Below are positions 1 through 31,934 of a stretch of DNA of 32,000 nucleotides, in pieces; position 1 is the first letter of the stretch; each line of letters starts with the position of its first letter. The notes under the pieces were generated by a model. It saw nothing but the letters and a program-made list of their open reading frames with translations. It did no database searches and had not been told where the DNA came from. Source of the DNA: Candidatus Saccharimonadota bacterium (GTDB taxonomy: Bacteria; Patescibacteriota; Gracilibacteria; BD1-5; UBA6164); the NCBI GenBank assembly GCA_965229705.1, contig OZ245922.1, forward strand, positions 330,001 through 362,000, written 5' to 3'. A program made the position numbers and the translations under genes.

Positions 1-738
1 TATATCACCATTCACTGCCAGTTGTCCAATCGCATGACCTGTGAGTTCAAGGTCATCTTTTAGGAATTTCCAAACAGGCTTTTCAGGGTTATCTTTGATC
101 TCATCTGTCTTTAGGAGGTAAGATACTTTCGTCTCTATATCACCAGTCAATGTGAGTTGCCCAATAGAAGAACCTGTGAGTTCAAGGTCATCTTTTAGGA
201 ATTTCCAAACAGGCTTTTCAGGGTTATCTTTGATCTCATCTGTCTTTAGGAGGTAGGATATTTTGGTCTCTATATCACCATTTACTGCCAGTTGCCCAAT
301 AGAAGAACCTGTGAGTTCAAGCTCATCTTTTAGGAATTTCCAAACAGGCTTTTCAGGGTTATCTTTGATCTCATCTGTCTTTAGGAGGTAGGATATTTTT
401 GTCTCTACATTACCAGTCAGTGCCAGTTTTCCAATCGCATAACCTGTGAGTTCAAGGTCATCTTTTAGGAATTTCCAAACAGGTTTTTCTGGACTATCCT
501 TCATCTCACCTGTCTTTAGGAGGTAGGATATTTTGGTCTCTATATCACCAGTCAATGTGAGTTGTCCAATCGCATGACCTGTGAGTTCAAGGTCATCTTT
601 TAGGAATTTCCAAACAGGCTTTTCAGGGTTATCTTTGATCTCATCTGTCTTTAGGAGGTAAGATACTTTCGTCTCTATATCACCAGTCAATGTGAGTTGC
701 CCAATAGAAGAACCTGTGAGTTCAAGGTCATCTTTTAA
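1..738. repeat. 120-bp tandem repeat, ~6 copies, coding (40 aa per unit), with a 540-bp higher-order duplication
   Basis: The unit ...ttcaaggtcatcttttaggaatttccaaacaggcttttcagggttatctttgatctcatctgtctttaggaggta... recurs every 120 bp. Positions 21-197 are identical to 561-737. Confidence 0.9.
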
Positions 739-1296
739 GAATGAAGCATAAGATAAAATAATACTTATCCTCTTCTCTCCGTCAGATTTAATAGCAATTT
801 TTAATAGATGATGCAATTTAGGAAATAGCTTCTGATATTCTCCTTCCTCATTAGCCCAAGCCAATATATGAAACCAACTTCCATAAAAAACTGCTTTAAT
901 AATATTTTTTTTAATTGTTTGATCTGTGTGTGTTGCAAGAAAGTCTTTCAAACTTGCTACATCAAATGACTCACATTTCTTTCTAATATCATTTATCAAG
1001 TCCAAGTTTTCAAACGCTGTTAATTCCCAAGCTGTTGTTGTGAGATGACCTGAAGATTGCAACACTTGGAGGAGCTCAACTTGCGTAAGTCTTTTAGCTC
1101 GCAAACAGCTCAAAGCTTGAACCAAAATAAGTTGAGGCAACTCTTCTAGGCTAGCTGACCGTACTCGTTTTTTTAGGCAATTTGCCAAATCTTTCCTCTG
1201 TCCAAGAATAATATGTAATAATTCCTTTACCTTATCTCACTGCTCAAATTTTTCAGTAGCTGAAGGACTTGCTCATTGTTGTGTAAGCTCATTCAT
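1..1296 (-). CDS. hypothetical tandem-repeat protein: unique ~185-aa N-terminal region followed by 40-aa repeats. The 3' end runs off the left edge of the window.
   Basis: The minus-strand frame is open from ATG 1296, with an in-frame TAA upstream at 1339-1341, down to position 1. There are two in-frame TGA (1273-1275, 1237-1239). It starts MNELTQQGASPSATEKFEQGDKVKELLHIILGQRKDL. From ~738 leftward it reads (ETKVSYLLKTDEIKDNPEKPVWKFLKDDLELTGxxIGQLxLTGDI)n. It is absent from the ORF track because it has no stop inside the window. Confidence 0.6.
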
Positions 1297-10033: not shown

Positions 10034-10783
10034 ATGCAGGAACATCTACGCGCTCACCTCCAAACTCGTAAACAGCCGCAAGTTCTACAAAGGTTTTTTT
10101 CAAAAATACAGTGAAAAGTGTCAAATATCCTCAAAACATGATACACCAAGATTCTTGAGGGATTGGACAGTACTTCTATTTCTCCAAATAGACTGGTAAC
10201 ACTGAGAACAGTAACGGCAATTAGCGTAGCAGGTATACTCACTCTGAATGATAATTTGTGAATGCTTGCTGAGTATGGACTTCTTACTGTGTGAGCACTA
10301 GCGTTGATCTCAGATAAGATAGACGGTGATCTTGCAAGATACACGCATCAAACATCAGTAGAAGGAGAGGTATATGACGCTCTTGCAGATAAGATAACTG
10401 TATACAGTATTCTTGCTCTTATATGGACTCAAGCTTCAGCAGAATCTCATTATCTTATACTTCTTTTACTGACATGAATGTCTTTTTCTCTCGACGCTTT
10501 CTCACAGTCTCTCAGGGGCAAGTATAATATTCAAGCACTCAGATCATTTTGGATGAAGCCCTTGAGTACTGAACAAAGGCAAAAAAATACTCAAAAACAG
10601 CAAACACAAAATGCTGCTAATATCTATGGTAAGCTCAAAACTTGTGCTGTGATGTCTGCTGTGTGAGTAGGAGTGCAGGATGTACTTCCACTCTCAGAAG
10701 AGAGTAAAATAACTATAGCAAACTGCTTGCTTACAAGTGGGATAATACTTTCCTGAGCAAGTCTTTATAATAAGTTTCGTTAA
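10034..10783 (+). CDS. CDP-alcohol phosphatidyltransferase family protein
   Basis: ATG 10034, TAA 10781-10783. Signature D-G-x2-A-R-x8-G-x3-D-x3-D: SDKIDGDLARYTHQTSVEGEVYDALADKI (from 10310). N-terminal ISPNRLVTLRT and several hydrophobic segments. In-frame TGA at 10112, 10139, 10157, 10259, 10292 and others. Confidence 0.8.
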
Positions 10784-10790
10784 GGAGACT

Positions 10791-10886
10791 CTGAGAAAGT
10801 CCTTTTTTTTCTCCTTTTACAAAGGAGAGATGGCTCGACAGAGCTAGAGAGGATTGGAGAATTCTTGTTTTCTCGAGACCGGTCTC
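10791..10886 (+). repeat. dispersed intergenic repeat, long/composite copy (head CTGAGAAAG + ~60-nt hairpin module + palindrome CTCGAGACCGGTCTC)
   Basis: The sequence ctgagaaagtcctttttttt-ctccttttacaaaggagagatggctcgacagagctagagaggattggagaatt-cttgttttctcgagaccggtctc is near-identical in its middle to the reverse complement of 21177-21264 and related to 27881-27974. Its head and palindrome match 31805-31843. It lies between convergent stops (10783 and 10948). Confidence 0.8.
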
Positions 10887-10947: not shown

Positions 10948-11691
10948 CTATCTCCCTCTCTTTCAAAGAAATATGTATAATAGTATCCCTCATATTATCA
11001 TAGGAATACTCAGTAAGCTTCACTGCGTTAAAAATCAAAGATAATATCATATGTGACTATCAGGCTGCCTGATCCATATCTCTACTATCACTCGAAACAC
11101 TCAATAATATATCAAAAAGAGAGCTGATATCTTTCAGGAAAAACTCTTTTTATAAATAAAGTTAAGGAGTACAAAAATCACGCATCACTCTAAAAAAGCT
11201 TCTACTAAAGGAGAAGGGAAGTATGAACCATTCGCTGTCTGCACAGCGAGAAATCAATCATAGGAAAATCATAACAGTTCCTTATTGAGATAATTTCCTA
11301 TTCTTCATAAAAACAAACCTACTGGAACTATCATAGCAAGTGTATCAAAAAGTTGAAAAACATCTTTTTTATACCTTTTTGCAAATATAGAGACCGCGAG
11401 TATCACTCATAACAGTCATCCATGAAATGCCATTCATCATTGCCATATATATAAAACTACAAGAGGATTTTCTATAAGCTCTCTAGGATAATAAAAGAGA
11501 AAATTTCCCAACCTCCCACCAATAATCACTCCTATAAATACAAAGTAAAAAAGCATCTCTCTTTCTCGATCATTATAGGGAAGGAATTTTTTTATTGCCC
11601 ATATACCATAAAAAAAAGCAACAGCATACATCAGTCAATAATAGCTTGGAGCAAGGGTTACTCAGAAAAAAGTGAGTTCAAATATTTTCAT
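10948..11691 (-). CDS. lgt: prolipoprotein diacylglyceryl transferase
   Basis: ATG 11691, TAG 10948-10950 (744 nt). Motifs: MKIFELTFFGVTLAPSYYGLMYAVAFFYG; YIWQ-G-G(TGA TGA at 11434-11439)-MAFHG-G; GRIGNYLNKELLG; PSPLVEAFLEG. Standard-code fragment 11437-11631 is the middle of this gene. Confidence 0.9.
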
Positions 11692-14585: not shown

Positions 14586-14715
14586 ATAAACAAGGAACAT
14601 TATTTTCCTAAAATAAGAATATGTGTTTCTGTGTATTTTTTAACTCCATAGTTTTATGTTATGAACAGCAACTTTTACAAGAACAGACATAGAGATGTTA
14701 TGAACAGCAGAGTAT

Positions 14716-16338
14716 ATGCCTCTTAAAACAGCACTTGAAGAGTGGAAAAAGAGTAAATTTAGTAAGGGGCGTTTAATAATCAAACAAAAAGTAGAAGACT
14801 TTTTAGAATTTCTTGATGATGAGTCTCTCCCTGATATACAAATATCTTGTCGAGATGTTGAGTTTCTCAAGATGTTCGTAGAAAAAAGGGTTAAAAAAAT
14901 GATTATTTCTTATCAAAAGAAATATAATGGAGAAGTTTTTCAAGAATGAGAAAATAGAGCTGATCTTGAATGATATCCTATAATATGAGCGAGAGAGTTA
15001 TGAATATTTTTAGGAGAAGCCCTAAAAATAAATTTTACTTTTCATCATATACTTCCCTTTATGGAAAAAGCAGAGGTTATAGAGGCTAATCATCTCTGAC
15101 AGTCTCTCAAGATAGCTTATAGAGATAAGAGTTGTACTTTTCAAGATATAGTATTCATGCTTGAAAAAGCAGAGATTATAAATATCACTCATCTCTGACA
15201 GTCTCTCAAGATAGCTGTGAGAGATGAGAATTGTAATTTTCAAGATATAGTATTCATGCTCGAAAAAGCAGAGGTTATAGAGGCTCATCATCTTTGAGAA
15301 GCTCTCAGGATAGCTAATAGAGATAAGAGTTATACTTTTCAAGATATAGTATTCATGCTTGAAAAAGCAGAGGTTATAGACGCTAATCATCTTTGAGAAG
15401 CTCTCAGGATAGCTAATAGAGATAAGAGTTATACTTTTCAAGATATAGTATTCATGCTTGAAAAAGCAGAGATTATAAATAATGTTCATCTTTGGGGAGG
15501 TCTCCAGATAGCTGTGAGAGATGAGAATTGTACTTTTCAAGATATAGTATTCATGCTTGAAAAAGCAGAGGTTATAGACGCTAATCATCTTTGAGAAGCT
15601 CTCAGGATAGCTAATAGAGATAAGAGTTATACTTTTCAAGATATAGTATTCATGCTTGAAAAAGCAGAGATTATAAATAATGTTCATCTTTGGGGAGGTC
15701 TCCAGATAGCTGTGAGAGATGAGAATTGTACTTTTCAAGATATAGTATTCATGCTTAAAAAAGCAGAGGTTATAGAGGCTAATCATCTCTGACAGTCTCT
15801 CAAGATAGCTGTGAGAGATGAGAGTTATACTTTTCAAGATATAGTATTCATGCTTGAAAAAGCAGAGGTTATAGAGGCTAGTCATCTCTGACAGTCTCTC
15901 AAGATAGCTTATAGAGATGAGAGTTGTACTTTTCAAGATATAGTATTCATGCTTGAAAAAGCAGAGATTATAAATAATGTTCATCTTTGGGGAGGTCTCC
16001 AGATAGCTGTGAGAGATGAGAATTGTACTTTTCAAGATATAGTATTCATGCTTGAAAGAGCAGAGGTTATAGACGCTAATCATCTAAAACTTATACTCCT
16101 TATTGCAAGAAGAAAAAAAGGGCATTGGTTAGACTCTTTAATATGAATTTTAGAGAAAAATGTAGGTATGAGTGGTGAGTGTTTTATGCTATTACTCCAA
16201 ATTGCTCTTAATGATGATAGCTGTACCTATGAGAAGTTTTTATTCTTGCTAAAGATTGGAAGAGAAAAAGGAGTAAAATTTACTTCTAGGCATTTGCAGC
16301 TTATAAATAAAATACAAGAAAAGCTAGATAACAAGTAG
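14716..16338 (+). CDS. 33-residue tandem-repeat protein (ankyrin-like periodicity, alpha-helical repeat), 540 aa. Alternative in-frame starts at 14656 and 14695.
   Basis: The frame is open from ATG 14716 to TAG 16336-16338 when TGA is sense. A unique N-terminus (MPLKTALEEWKKSKF...) is followed by ~10 copies of MLEKAEVI(E/D)ANHL-G-(Q/E)(S/A)L(K/R)IAxRDxSxTFQDIVF and a degenerate last repeat plus a unique tail. Fragments 14716-14949 and 15949-16146 share the frame. Confidence 0.7.
15061..16083. repeat. 99-bp tandem repeat, ~10.3 copies, coding, in three sequence variants
   Basis: Repeat units start at 15157 and every 99 nt after that, preceded by a first 96-bp unit at 15061. The block 15355-15552 is identical to 15553-15750, a perfect 198-bp tandem duplication. 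Confidence 0.95.
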
Positions 16339-21172: not shown

Positions 21173-21286
21173 TTAAGGAAGCTCTGAAAAAAAAATTCTA
21201 ATCCTCTCTGGCTCTATCGAGCCATCTCTCCTTTGGAAAAGGAGAGAAAAAAGGAGTTTCTCAAAGGTTTGCTTAAGGAGAGTCTC
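21173..21286 (-). repeat. dispersed intergenic repeat, long copy (reverse orientation)
   Basis: The reverse complement of 21177-21264 reads ttgagaaactccttttttctctccttttccaaaggagagatggctcgatagagccagagaggattagaatttttttttcagagcttcc. It contains hairpins ctctccttt/aaaggagag and ggctc/gagcc, and is flanked by TTAAGGA(A/G)..TCT at both ends (21173-21185 and 21272-21284). Confidence 0.8.
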
Positions 21287-22078: not shown

Positions 22079-22903
22079 ATGAGAAAGTCTCGTTTTGCAT
22101 CCAAGAAAAAACCCGGTCATCAACAAAAGATGCAAGTAGCACGAAAGAAAAGACCAGCTCCATACCAAATGCGAGACAAATACTTTGAAATGGCAAAGCA
22201 AGATGGATATAGAGCCCGTAGCGCTTATAAGCTTAAGGAAATACAAGAAAATTTTGAGCTTATAAAACCTGGCATGAATATTTGTGATATTTGAGCTGCG
22301 CCGGGGAGTTTTATACAGTATATGAAACGCATTATATCTGACACAGGAGTTATCGTAGGAATTGATCTGAAACCTATAGCAAAATACTCTCAAAAAAATA
22401 TTATCACTCTTGAACATGATATTTTCGAATGTGATTCACTGAGAGTGAAAATCATAGAACTTTTAGAAGATGTGGCATTGAAGGAATCTTTGAGAAACAA
22501 AAAAACCTTGACTGAGAGACTAGTCTCAAGCTCTTGAAATAGTAAACTCGAGACCAGTCTCGAGAAAATAAAATGACTTTCTCAGGTGCTCAATAAGTCA
22601 TCTTCTCCCGCGAAAGAAAGTGTATACTTTGATCTGATAACAAGTGATATTGCCCCAAACACCACAGGGCGAAAAGATATAGATCAGTATGCAAGTGTAG
22701 AACTCAATATAGAAGTTTTAAAATTTGCAGATATATTTCTCAAAACATGATGAAATCTGTTACTCAAAGTGTTTAAGGGAGAGGATTTTTGAGACCTTAC
22801 ACAAGAAATACATAAGAGATACCAACGTTTTACAGAGTTTAAGCCTTATGCTTGTCGGGATAGAAGTTTTGAAGAATATCTTATTTGCTTTGGAAAAAAA
22901 TAA
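22079..22903 (+). CDS. rlmE: 23S rRNA 2'-O-ribose methyltransferase RlmE/FtsJ carrying a ~50-aa internal insertion
   Basis: ATG 22079, TAA 22901-22903. Motifs: [30 protein letters not shown](TGA 22292)-AAPGSF; ITSDIAPNTTGRKDIDQ; G-G-NLLLKVFKGEDF; KPYACRDRSFEEYLI. Fragments 22079-22294 and 22322-22537 are in this frame. Confidence 0.85.
22511..22585 (-). repeat. palindromic repeat element copy embedded in frame in rlmE
   Basis: The sequence is ctgagagactagtctcaagctcttgaaatagtaaactcgagaccagtctcgagaaaataaaatgactttctcag. The reverse complement of 22547-22585 (ctgagaaagtcattttattttctcgagactggtctcgag) matches 31805-31843 (ctgagaaaggcatttttatttttcgagaccggtctcgag). The ends are inverted (CTGAGA...TCTCAG), and it holds two 12-nt palindromes, GAGACTAGTCTC and GAGACCAGTCTC. 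Confidence 0.75.
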
Positions 22904-24070: not shown

Positions 24071-24098
24071 CATAAGGCGCCCATTTGGGCGCCTTATG
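24071..24098. other. GC-rich perfect hairpin downstream of the lipoprotein gene (no clear U-tract)
   Basis: cataaggcgccc-attt-gggcgccttatg forms a 12-bp perfect stem, atypically GC-rich for this window. Confidence 0.6.
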
Positions 24099-24226
24099 AC
24101 TTTCTCAGAACTTCCTTACAAAGATACCCTTGAAAAAATTACTTCATCACTATAATACGGCTACTTCATTTTTCCTACACCGAAAAATACCAGTAACCCT
24201 GCAAGTTATTCTCTTACATATTTCTC

Positions 24227-27867: not shown

Positions 27868-27974
27868 GCTTGAGCAGGTTTTGAGAAAGTCTTTTTTTTC
27901 TCATTTTGAAAGGAGGGATTTCTCACTAAAGCTAGAGTGGATAAGAGAATTTTTGTTTTTCAGAGCTTGCTCAA
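27868..27974 (+). repeat. dispersed intergenic repeat, long copy (more diverged)
   Basis: ttgagaaagtcttttttttctcattttgaaaggagggatttctcactaaagctagagtggataagagaatttttgtttttcagagcttgc aligns with the copies at 10791 and 21177 (rc). Short inverted ends: gcttgagca (27868) and tgctcaa (27968-27974). Confidence 0.7.
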
Positions 27975-29475: not shown

Positions 29476-31491
29476 ATGAGAACCTATTTCATCCAAACAT
29501 TTTGATGCCAAATGAATCAGGCTGACAGTGAGAAAATACATATGGTATTTTTGCAGTCGGGATTTTGTCGAGCTTGAAATATTCAGAGTGCGGATATCGT
29601 TATTTTTAATACTTGCAGTGTCCGTCAAAAATGAGAAGATAGGGTATTTGGTATGATGAGAGATCTCGCTCGCAGTTCTCACAAACCTCTTTTTGCTATC
29701 ACTGGTTGTATGGTACGCAAAACAGGTCTCGCAAAAAGATATCTTCCTACAGCTCAAACAAAGACAAAGAAGAAAAATACTACAAAACACATACAACTCC
29801 TAGACCATGAACAATGAATATATAACAGTGAAGATACACTCTTTGTGCGTAGCGAGTATATTGATTGCGTTTTTCGTATAGAAGAAACACGCTACATACC
29901 CCATATACTTTCACATATTTACGGTGAAAAAATCGGGCAAGAAGATAAATATGATGACTACCTCAAACAAGTCCAACAACGAGAAAACCCCTTTTCTGCA
30001 TCAGTGATTATCCAAACAGGTTGCGATAACTACTGTACATTTTGTATTGTTCCATACACGCGGTGAGGGGAAATATCTCGTCCAGAAGATGATATAATAA
30101 ATGAGTGTCAAGATGCCGTCTCCAATGGAGCAAAAGAGATCACGCTTCTCGGGCAAAATGTCAATTCCTATGGGAAACAAAAAAATAGCAAACTTTGGAA
30201 TAGTGAAAAATCGAGATGGAATACTGCTCAAAAAACTCTTAAAATAGGAGTCGATCTTGATGATACTCTCTTTGTTGTACTCAGTGAAGAAGTCATACAA
30301 AGCTATAATGCCAAGTATCATAAGATTCTCGAGCTCGATGATGTGCGAACATTTAACTGCAATGGTATACCAGAGCTTATGCAGGAATATCACAACTATG
30401 AACAGAGACACCGATGAGATATGTCTCTCCATGAGAATGGAAAAAAGGTATTGCAAAAATTATACGCTGCAGGACACAAAATATATGTGATCACCTCAAG
30501 ACCAGCAAAAGAGAGAAAGACTACAGAAGCACTTTTGGAAAAATATTTTTGAAAATGATTTTTTTCTCAGATATGTTTTGTCAGTGAGCTTGGGCATGAT
30601 AACAAGTATGAGATTGCCAATACTCTCCAGCTCGATGTGGTTATCGATGATGGACCACATCATATCCGTGCCTATCAAAAAAACTTTTCAGGAAAAATAT
30701 GTATATTTACTCAACCATGGAACAAGACTATCTCAGAAGATGGGCAAAAAACCTATAGAGTCAACTGCTGGAATGAGTTTGCTGAAAGGATAGAGAGTTT
30801 TCAGTTTTATTCGCCTTTTCGATCTCTCTTAGAAAAAATAGATACTCTACAAGGTCTTGATCGTATACGATTTACTTCCAGCAATCCACATGACATGACG
30901 AGAGATATTTTGGATGCTCATAGTGAGCTCTCAAAAACCTGCAATTATCTCCACTTTGCTCTCCAGTCATGAAACAATAAAATGCTCAAAAAAATGAATA
31001 GGCGTCATAGTTATGAAGATTTTCGTGATATGGTAACGTATCTGCGAAAAAAAGATCCTCTCTTTTCTATTTCTACAGATATTATTGTATGATTTAGTGG
31101 AGAAACTGATGAAATGTTTGAGGATACTGTTCGCGCGTTTCGAGAGTGCATGTTTGACTTCTGTTATACAGCGAGGTACTCTGTGAGACCCAATACCCTT
31201 GCAGCAAAAGTTATGCCAGATAATGTTCCTGAGAGTGTCAAAGCTGAGAGGTGGCATATACTCAATGATCTTTTGTTAGAAAATATTTCTCAGAGAAACG
31301 AGCTCATGCTTGGAAGAGTAGAGAAAGTACTGATATCATGAAAAAAAGATGCCGTATTTTTTGGGAGAACACGTAACTTTAAAGAAGTTTTTTTCGAAGC
31401 TCCAGAGAGCTGTAATATCTGAGATTTGGTAGACATAAAAATAACCGATCGTGATAGATATGTACTCAAGGGAAAGTATACAAATACATAA
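29476..31491 (+). CDS. miaB: tRNA methylthiotransferase MiaB with a nested HAD-superfamily (NT5C-like) domain (671 aa)
   Basis: ATG 29476, TAA 31489-31491, every codon walked. Motifs: [37 protein letters not shown]; radical-SAM [16 protein letters not shown](30064)-GE; [10 protein letters not shown]; [insert 30238-30804]; [14 protein letters not shown]; LHFALQS-G-NN; IV-G(31090)-FSGET; TRAM-like C-terminus. Fragments 29845-30066, 30637-30972 and 31114-31341 share the frame. Confidence 0.9.
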
Positions 31492-31797: not shown

Positions 31798-31804
31798 AAA
31801 AATT

Positions 31805-31843
31805 CTGAGAAAGGCATTTTTATTTTTCGAGACCGGTCTCGAG
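31805..31843 (+). repeat. palindromic repeat element, short intergenic copy
   Basis: ctgagaaaggcatttttatttttcgagaccggtctcgag contains the perfect 16-nt palindrome tcgagaccggtctcga and shares head and palindrome with 10791-10886 and 22547-22585 (rc). Confidence 0.8.
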
Positions 31844-31934
31844 TTCATTATTTTAAGTGTAAGAAACTCTAGGGTTGTTTACACTTTTGGATAATCTGTA
31901 CAGCAGAATATTTTAGAAGTTAAACATAAAGGAA

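Follow-up and report, generated by a model that had tools for sequence, protein, structure and literature searches.

REPs are extragenic by definition, and REP/REPIN sequences move by means of RAYT (Y1) transposases. The highly iterated palindrome of the cyanobacterial genomes, HIP1, is very dense and usually replaces existing codons. Rickettsia palindromic elements (RPEs; Ogata et al. 2000) are palindromic repeats of ~100-150 nt that lie in frame inside genes (PMC10969869), and prokaryotic MITEs with occasional intragenic copies include ERIC, BOX, QMITE1 and Correia (PMC10969869). In-frame selfish palindromic repeats in essential genes have so far been documented mainly in Rickettsia; the case analysed here comes from a lineage that is unrelated to it, has an ultra-small genome and uses an altered code, and concerns a repeat copy inside the gene rlmE, within a window (the whole stretch of DNA that was analysed) of 32,000 nt.

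The rlmE repeat resembles RPEs in several respects. It is a hairpin-forming palindromic repeat found both between genes and in frame in conserved housekeeping genes, the peptide it adds would be translated at a site compatible with the protein fold, and its host is a small-genome, host-dependent bacterium. It differs in that the host belongs to an unrelated phylum and uses genetic code 25, in that the traceable unit measures 64-84 nt (28-32 nt for the doublets found elsewhere) against ~100-150 nt in RPEs, and in that its core is a perfect 12-bp palindrome where RPEs have a long consensus. Because the host has a Gracilibacteria-type genome, we claim no membership of an RPE family; the comparison supports an element that is RPE-like in its mode of action, and it is set beside RPEs by behaviour alone, kinship in sequence not being expected. 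To that extent the analysis supports the preliminary description of this DNA, which had proposed an RPE-like element inserted in frame, and we infer its mobility.

Read with the standard bacterial code, the region of rlmE consists of short broken ORFs. With TGA as a sense codon it becomes a single ORF on the plus strand (rlmE/ftsJ, 22079-22903) of 274 codons, six of them in-frame TGA (Gly), which encodes a protein of 274 amino acids. UGA encodes Gly in the Gracilibacteria and Absconditabacteria (PMC8629427). The same reading is supported here because the TGA at 22292 stands at the invariant Gly position of the SAM-binding motif DIGAAPG in the rlmE product, and no other Gly codon is as frequent in the window as TGA (27 per 1000 codons). 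The product matches the Pfam FtsJ family (PF01728) with E = 3e-41, as well as PDB structures of the FtsJ/RlmE family. Its closest database protein, P0001, is encoded on a contig of 1,006,762 bp and differs from the window translation mainly in having W for G at the TGA codons. Other RlmE relatives are no more than 64% identical, the next-closest being RlmE proteins from Gracilibacteria.

In an alignment with 49 orthologs, the catalytic K-D-K-E tetrad (K51, D190, K230 and E265) and the SAM-binding motif fall in invariant columns. The features of an RlmE/FtsJ 23S rRNA 2'-O-methyltransferase, namely the FtsJ domain, the SAM-binding motif and the K-D-K-E tetrad, are thus all present. The deposited twin protein was modelled with AlphaFold (mean pLDDT 87.5, pTM 0.82, pLDDT above 90 in the core), and the modelled core compares with E. 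coli FtsJ (1EIZ) at a TM score of 0.86 and with human MRM2 at 0.82-0.88. Judged from sequence and model, RlmE with its insert looks still functional.

The matches to solved structures fall into two blocks, residues 27-121 and 184-272, with ~62 residues between them where the structures have ~13-16. The stretch from HDIF to FDLITSD is 22 residues long in 39 of the 50 aligned orthologs and 71 in the window RlmE, and comparison with the 49 Gracilibacteria orthologs puts the extra part at 48-49 residues (nt 22481-22624). Its boundaries, ~22481-22624, were set by comparing codons with those of L105, L106 and L107, three syntenic genes without an interruption. They enclose 144 nt, a multiple of three, and an in-frame segment of 48 codons on the plus strand (KESLRNKKTLTERLVSSSGNSKLETSLEKIKGLSQVLNKSSSPAKESV) that lies between helix aC and strand b4, and forms a gap in the structure matches. 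The preliminary description had counted about 50 extra residues between the RlmE blocks, which agrees with these 48 codons; as for the conservation of the insert among homologs, the alignment answers that it is not conserved, the 39 orthologs having the short loop in its place. No empty site was found in any close relative in the databases searched, where the best non-self RlmE ortholog is 64% identical.

Two in-frame TGA (Gly) codons lie within the insert on the plus strand, at 22535-22537 and 22574-22576; both had been pointed out earlier, and translation with TGA as sense confirms them together with the peptide quoted at the time. Three of the six frames of the insert are without TAA and TAG, and the rlmE frame is open only under this genetic code, because it contains the two TGA codons. 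For a random 144-nt segment of this DNA, the chance of being open rises from 12% to 34% when TGA is sense. The insertion leaves the reading frame and the essential residues of RlmE intact (144 nt, open frame, tetrad). In the AlphaFold model the insert extends helix aC and returns as a helix before b4, with pLDDT 62-82. In the FtsJ Rossmann topology the N-terminal end of b4 is at the sheet edge opposite the SAM/catalytic site, and the modelled insert may be a surface arm on the side away from that site.

Part of the insert can be traced to a repeat. This part, copy C of a short-form repeat (22507-22590, minus strand), was recovered with nhmmer and blastn as a match to 31801-31877. The matching copy, D (short form, plus strand), was found by the same two methods; it starts 4 nt past the stop codon of a rhodanese gene and carries the palindrome GAGACCGGTCTC at 31829-31840. 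As reverse complement, 22545-22585 matches 31845-31805 at 88% over 41 nt (E ~1e-6 within the window). The ungapped match between C and D covers 64 nt at 80%, that is 51/64 identities, where 40 dinucleotide-preserving shuffles gave 36 on average and 39 at most. The same sequence occurs in apparently intergenic DNA (31801-31877) and inside an ORF (22507-22590) of one genome. The preliminary description had taken the centre of the insert for a copy of the element at 31805-31843, and this stands, the similarity persisting under both formal alignment and shuffling. The matches show the central 64-84 nt of the insert to be repeat-derived at the sequence level. The repeat-traceable share amounts to only ~64-84 of the 144 nt, and ~60 nt have no identified source. 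The C/D insertion event appears to be old, because the copies are only 80-88% identical.

Copy C contains the two 12-nt palindromes that had been described in the insert, which a motif scan placed at 22516-22527 (palindrome 1, GAGACTAGTCTC, with CCGG changed to CTAG, read R-L-V-S) and at 22550-22561 (palindrome 2, GAGACCAGTCTC, read E-T-S-L). On the minus strand of copy C the two pair as a 16-bp hairpin, with z = -3.0. The palindrome GAGACYRGTCTC, which both C and D contain, occurs four times in the window where 0.00 are expected, and is still limited to four window sites when up to two mismatches are allowed. CTGAGAAAGNC, with which both C and D start, also occurs four times, against 0.19 expected. 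Within the 32 kb there are only two short-form copies and four palindromes. At their core the genic palindromes read CTAG and CCAG, and those between genes, at 10875 and 31829, keep CCGG intact; the changes in the mnmA doublets of three species, described below, are likewise restricted to CCGG. The genic copy may be the older, and deamination at a methylated CCGG is a possible source of its changes.

The inverted ends of the form CTGAGA...TCTCAG that had been proposed for the insert are present in copy C; the left end lies at 22512-22517, not at 22511, and overlaps palindrome 1. These ends are weak, comprising only 6 nt (CTGAGA/TCTCAG) in C, and the second end is missing from D. Neither a target-site duplication nor a strong terminal inverted repeat is visible, and there is no flanking direct repeat. 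A second element terminus at 22490 (TTGAGAAAC) was considered and rejected: TGAGAAA is found at 44 places in the window, where it represents ordinary codons of the Gly-Glu-Lys type. No Rfam family matched anywhere in the window, and a metagenome scan specific for C/D returned no matches.

A second family of repeats, the long form, is present in the same window. Copy A (10786-10886, plus strand; nhmmer and blastn) lies between convergent genes and ends in the GAGACCGGTCTC palindrome at 10875-10886. Copy B (21181-21268, minus strand; nhmmer E = 7e-25) is without a palindrome and is intergenic, after ftsK, and copy E (27876-27966, plus strand; nhmmer E = 2e-22) lies upstream of the probable start of the S41 peptidase gene. 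A solitary terminus, CTGAGAAAGTC, was located by motif scan at 24098-24108 on the minus strand, in intergenic DNA. Copies A, B, D and E and this terminus are apparently all intergenic, and C alone is genic. A and B match over 64 nt at 92% (E = 2e-20). What A and C have in common is only the 16-nt 5' end and a palindrome block of 19-24 nt; the interior of A forms, with B and E, a separate long-form family of ~90 nt (nhmmer E = 1e-22 to 1e-27). The preliminary description had equated the sequence at 10791-10886 with the rlmE copy, which is correct for the end blocks and overstated for the interior. The long-form copies (10786-10877, 21181-21268 and 27876-27966) share a two-hairpin core, CTCTCCTTTT..AAAGGAGAG and GGCTCGAYAGAGCC, with fold z-scores of -2.2 for copy A and -3.5 for copy B, and the family could be a structured RNA or a REP-like element.

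The loop that carries the insert is also expanded in other Gracilibacteria. Expanded aC-b4 loops, of about five types, occur in eleven of the 50 aligned orthologs. At locus L102 (protein P0016, +44 residues), rlmE nt 10420-10514 match intergenic positions 11483-11577 of the same contig over 95 nt at 82%, with a blast E of 3e-18 over 64 nt. A relationship of this repeat to the long form of the window was considered and rejected, its nhmmer E exceeding 0.2; because that similarity is not significant the two are treated as separate families, and nhmmer found no significant relation of the L102 repeat to either window family. In the L103 clade (P0073, P0078, P0081, P0088, P0094 and P0096) the loop DNA consists of decayed GAGACCGGTCTC units in succession, which encode ETGL..GDRSPD. 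The insert of P0037/P0053 (+13 residues) contains a hairpin with an 8-bp stem, and no second copy of it was found within 19 kb. Different repeats have thus entered this permissive RlmE loop independently of one another.

Palindromes of the same kind were found in other genes of TGA-recoded bacteria. A scan of a genome collection with an 18-mer gave, among the matches listed, five useful ones in Gracilibacteria/Peribacteria; these include two palindromes within mnmA, where the peptide is IETGLEKTRPVSY, and a single one within an RNase Y-like ORF. The other listed matches were mostly due to chance, in unrelated genomes. When metagenomes were scanned for two palindromes 4-34 nt apart, at least 120 loci were obtained, where roughly two are expected, and those listed included ~17 low-GC TGA-recoded contigs. 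These contigs have 10 pairs within long ORFs and 9 between genes. The pairs within ORFs are read as ETGL-xx-RPVS or RPVS-x-ETGL, and occur in Mfd, RecG, TsaD, MnmA, AlaRS-like, HemW-like and other proteins. In eight locus groups (L136, L215, L116, L201/L020/L032, L139, L155, L110 and L211), GAGACCGGTCTC pairs 16-20 nt apart are inserted in frame in genes for Mfd, RecG, TsaD, MnmA, a HemW-like protein, two proteins similar to aminoacyl-tRNA synthetases (one of them AlaRS-like) and a prepilin leader peptide, and the peptides are always ETGL plus RPVS.

The pair in Mfd (L136) appears as a clean 14-aa gap against the structure 6m6a, between helicase motifs II and III, and is not in the 18 nearest homologs; no close ortholog with an empty site was available for comparison, the best being 59% identical. 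The RecG pair adds ~16 residues. By alignment, the Mfd and RecG pairs are lineage-specific insertions. Coding pairs of different contigs have only the 12-mers in common, with differing spacers and flanks. In full-text literature searches no account of such repeats in Gracilibacteria came up, nor any of the 12-mer as a repeat. The many GC-rich doublet loci were rejected as related insertions, the pairs there being, in all probability, ordinary operator sites. At L109, L115, L122, L128, L129, L134 and many other GC-rich loci the 12-mer pair has a spacing of 21 nt and is situated in a divergent promoter region, with the gene of a LacI-family regulator on one side and an amino-acid ABC transporter operon on the other, and it is probably the operator of that regulator.

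The genic palindromes are strongly biased in reading frame. Twelve of 23 are read as GAG ACC GGT CTC, eleven as AGA CCG GTC TC and none as xGA GAC CGG TCT. The chance of this is ~(1/3)^11, because there are 11 independent pairs and one of three placements avoids CGG in both palindromes. With RLVS and ETSL, the rlmE copy too avoids the CGG frame. No Arg codon is rarer in the window than CGG (1.0 per 1000), and CGG is reported to be reassigned to Trp in Absconditabacteria and some Gracilibacteria (PMC8629427). Avoidance of the CGG frame is indirect evidence for translation of the inserts and for their being filtered by selection. The only palindrome unit seen in the CGG frame (GDRSPD) is that of the L103 clade (L103 3825-4595 and its relatives P0073-P0096), a lineage in which CGG may be an ordinary Arg codon.

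We consider it likely that a non-autonomous palindromic repeat entered rlmE in frame and was tolerated there, in the manner of an RPE. A small repeat of this kind, otherwise located between genes in this genome, would have inserted into the rlmE coding sequence at the aC-b4 loop, on the side of the Rossmann sheet opposite the SAM/catalytic site. With no TAA or TAG in its frame and two TGA codons read as Gly, it would be translated as a 48-residue, probably helical, surface arm, leaving the enzyme functional. Purifying selection would purge insertions that break the frame or the fold, and permissive sites such as the aC-b4 loop would retain them. That only permissive sites keep insertions may be the reason why this loop has been filled several times in related lineages. 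The route would be transposition in trans, and homologs in related genomes suggest a Y1/RAYT-type transposase as one candidate enzyme: in the syntenic loci L102 (4845-5375) and L107 (3236-3802), RAYT-like Y1 (HUH) genes lie between ftsK and rlmE. They score 38-40 bits with Pfam and match the NCBIfam REP-associated tyrosine transposase at E = 1e-14 to 2e-18, below its curated cut-off.

Like REPs and REPINs, the elements are short palindromes, often in hairpin-capable pairs and mostly at gene ends, and RAYT-like genes are found in related Gracilibacteria. Unlike REPs, copy C lies inside rlmE and so is not extragenic; the window encodes no transposase, and a RAYT homolog was found neither there nor in the doublet-bearing contigs; palindromes do not flank the RAYT-like genes of L102 and L107, GAGACCGGTCTC being absent from those loci; and no conserved 5' tetranucleotide was seen. 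The elements resemble MITEs in being small, non-coding, structured repeats that sometimes form in-frame fusions, and differ from them in that there are no convincing terminal inverted repeats and no target-site duplication, and that no parent insertion sequence was identified. A common 12-mer with differing spacers and flanks is, moreover, unusual for a conventional transposable element.

A wider reading, which we hold tentatively and rate somewhat short of an even chance, is that TGA-recoded Patescibacteria (Gracilibacteria and Absconditabacteria) host minimal GAGACCGGTCTC elements, usually as hairpin pairs, that enter genes as readily as spacers. They would add ETGL/RPVS-type peptides to RlmE, Mfd, RecG, TsaD, MnmA and AlaRS. 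The loss of TGA as a stop would make coding DNA about three times as permissive, CGG avoidance would set the surviving frames, and the RlmE aC-b4 loop would have been hit at least four times by different repeats.

The palindromes might instead be iterated DNA-level signals, similar to HIP1, to uptake sequences or to binding/modification sites, and spread by mutation bias, gene conversion or selection with no mobile element involved. Like HIP1, they are short and perfect, are present in coding and non-coding DNA and are read in more than one frame. Only the 12-mer is conserved in the coding doublets, while spacers and flanks vary; the same 12-mer is probably a protein-binding operator in unrelated GC-rich bacteria; its variation falls at the central CCGG (CTGG, CCAG and CTAG), as expected from deamination at a methylated site; and the mnmA doublet is conserved in three species. 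We nevertheless regard a signal of this kind as an unlikely, though serious, rival. The window palindromes always lie within longer repeats (41-64 nt for C/D, a 100-nt unit for A), the events add 14-48 codons where HIP1 usually replaces existing ones, and a density of 4 per 32 kb, with GAGACCGGTCTC found zero times in ~90 kb of syntenic relatives, is unlike that of HIP1 or uptake sequences.

Two further explanations concern rlmE itself. That the extra segment evolved as a functional extension of RlmE, for example an arm contacting the ribosome, with 31801-31877 a fragment copied from the gene, seems very improbable: the inserts of different lineages are unrelated in sequence and length, and what C and D share includes palindromes that are also present at 10875 and in many unrelated genes. 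The intact CCGG of the intergenic palindromes, against the derived CTAG/CCAG of the genic ones, likewise suggests that the genic copy is the more diverged. The segment has, on the other hand, been kept in frame, the model shows it as a regular helical hairpin, and several lineages have an expanded loop, as such an extension would have it. We give almost no credence to rlmE being a decaying pseudogene or an assembly chimera whose frame is open by accident. Openness alone is weak evidence, because 34% of random 144-nt segments are open under this code; the 274-codon frame is unbroken throughout, however, no catalytic or SAM-binding residue has been lost, a public 1.0-Mb contig (that of P0001) contains the same sequence, and comparable inserts are kept across whole clades.

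In-frame insertion of a palindromic repeat, as favoured here, would suggest that such events arise generally where genome reduction and repeat activity come together, and would link codon reassignment to the tolerance of insertions in coding DNA. The inserts would provide a natural map of permissive loops in conserved enzymes. They also carry a warning for annotation, since odd extra protein segments in these bacteria may be repeat-derived rather than new domains. The frame bias, with 23 of 23 palindromes avoiding CGG, could serve as a sequence-only readout of problematic codons in uncultured lineages.

Other internal repeats and extensions were observed in the course of this analysis. A MiaB-like radical SAM gene at 29476-31491 of the window has 672-683 codons and an additional mid-gene domain; its L102 ortholog has a weak NT5C match between two Radical_SAM matches. 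Tandem 135-nt repeats (at least five copies, 73-91% identity) occupy window positions 1-840, in a long minus-strand ORF that runs off the start of the window. At 14932-16221, eleven tandem 99-nt repeats, corresponding to 33-residue units, lie within an ORF of 565 codons (14644-16338).
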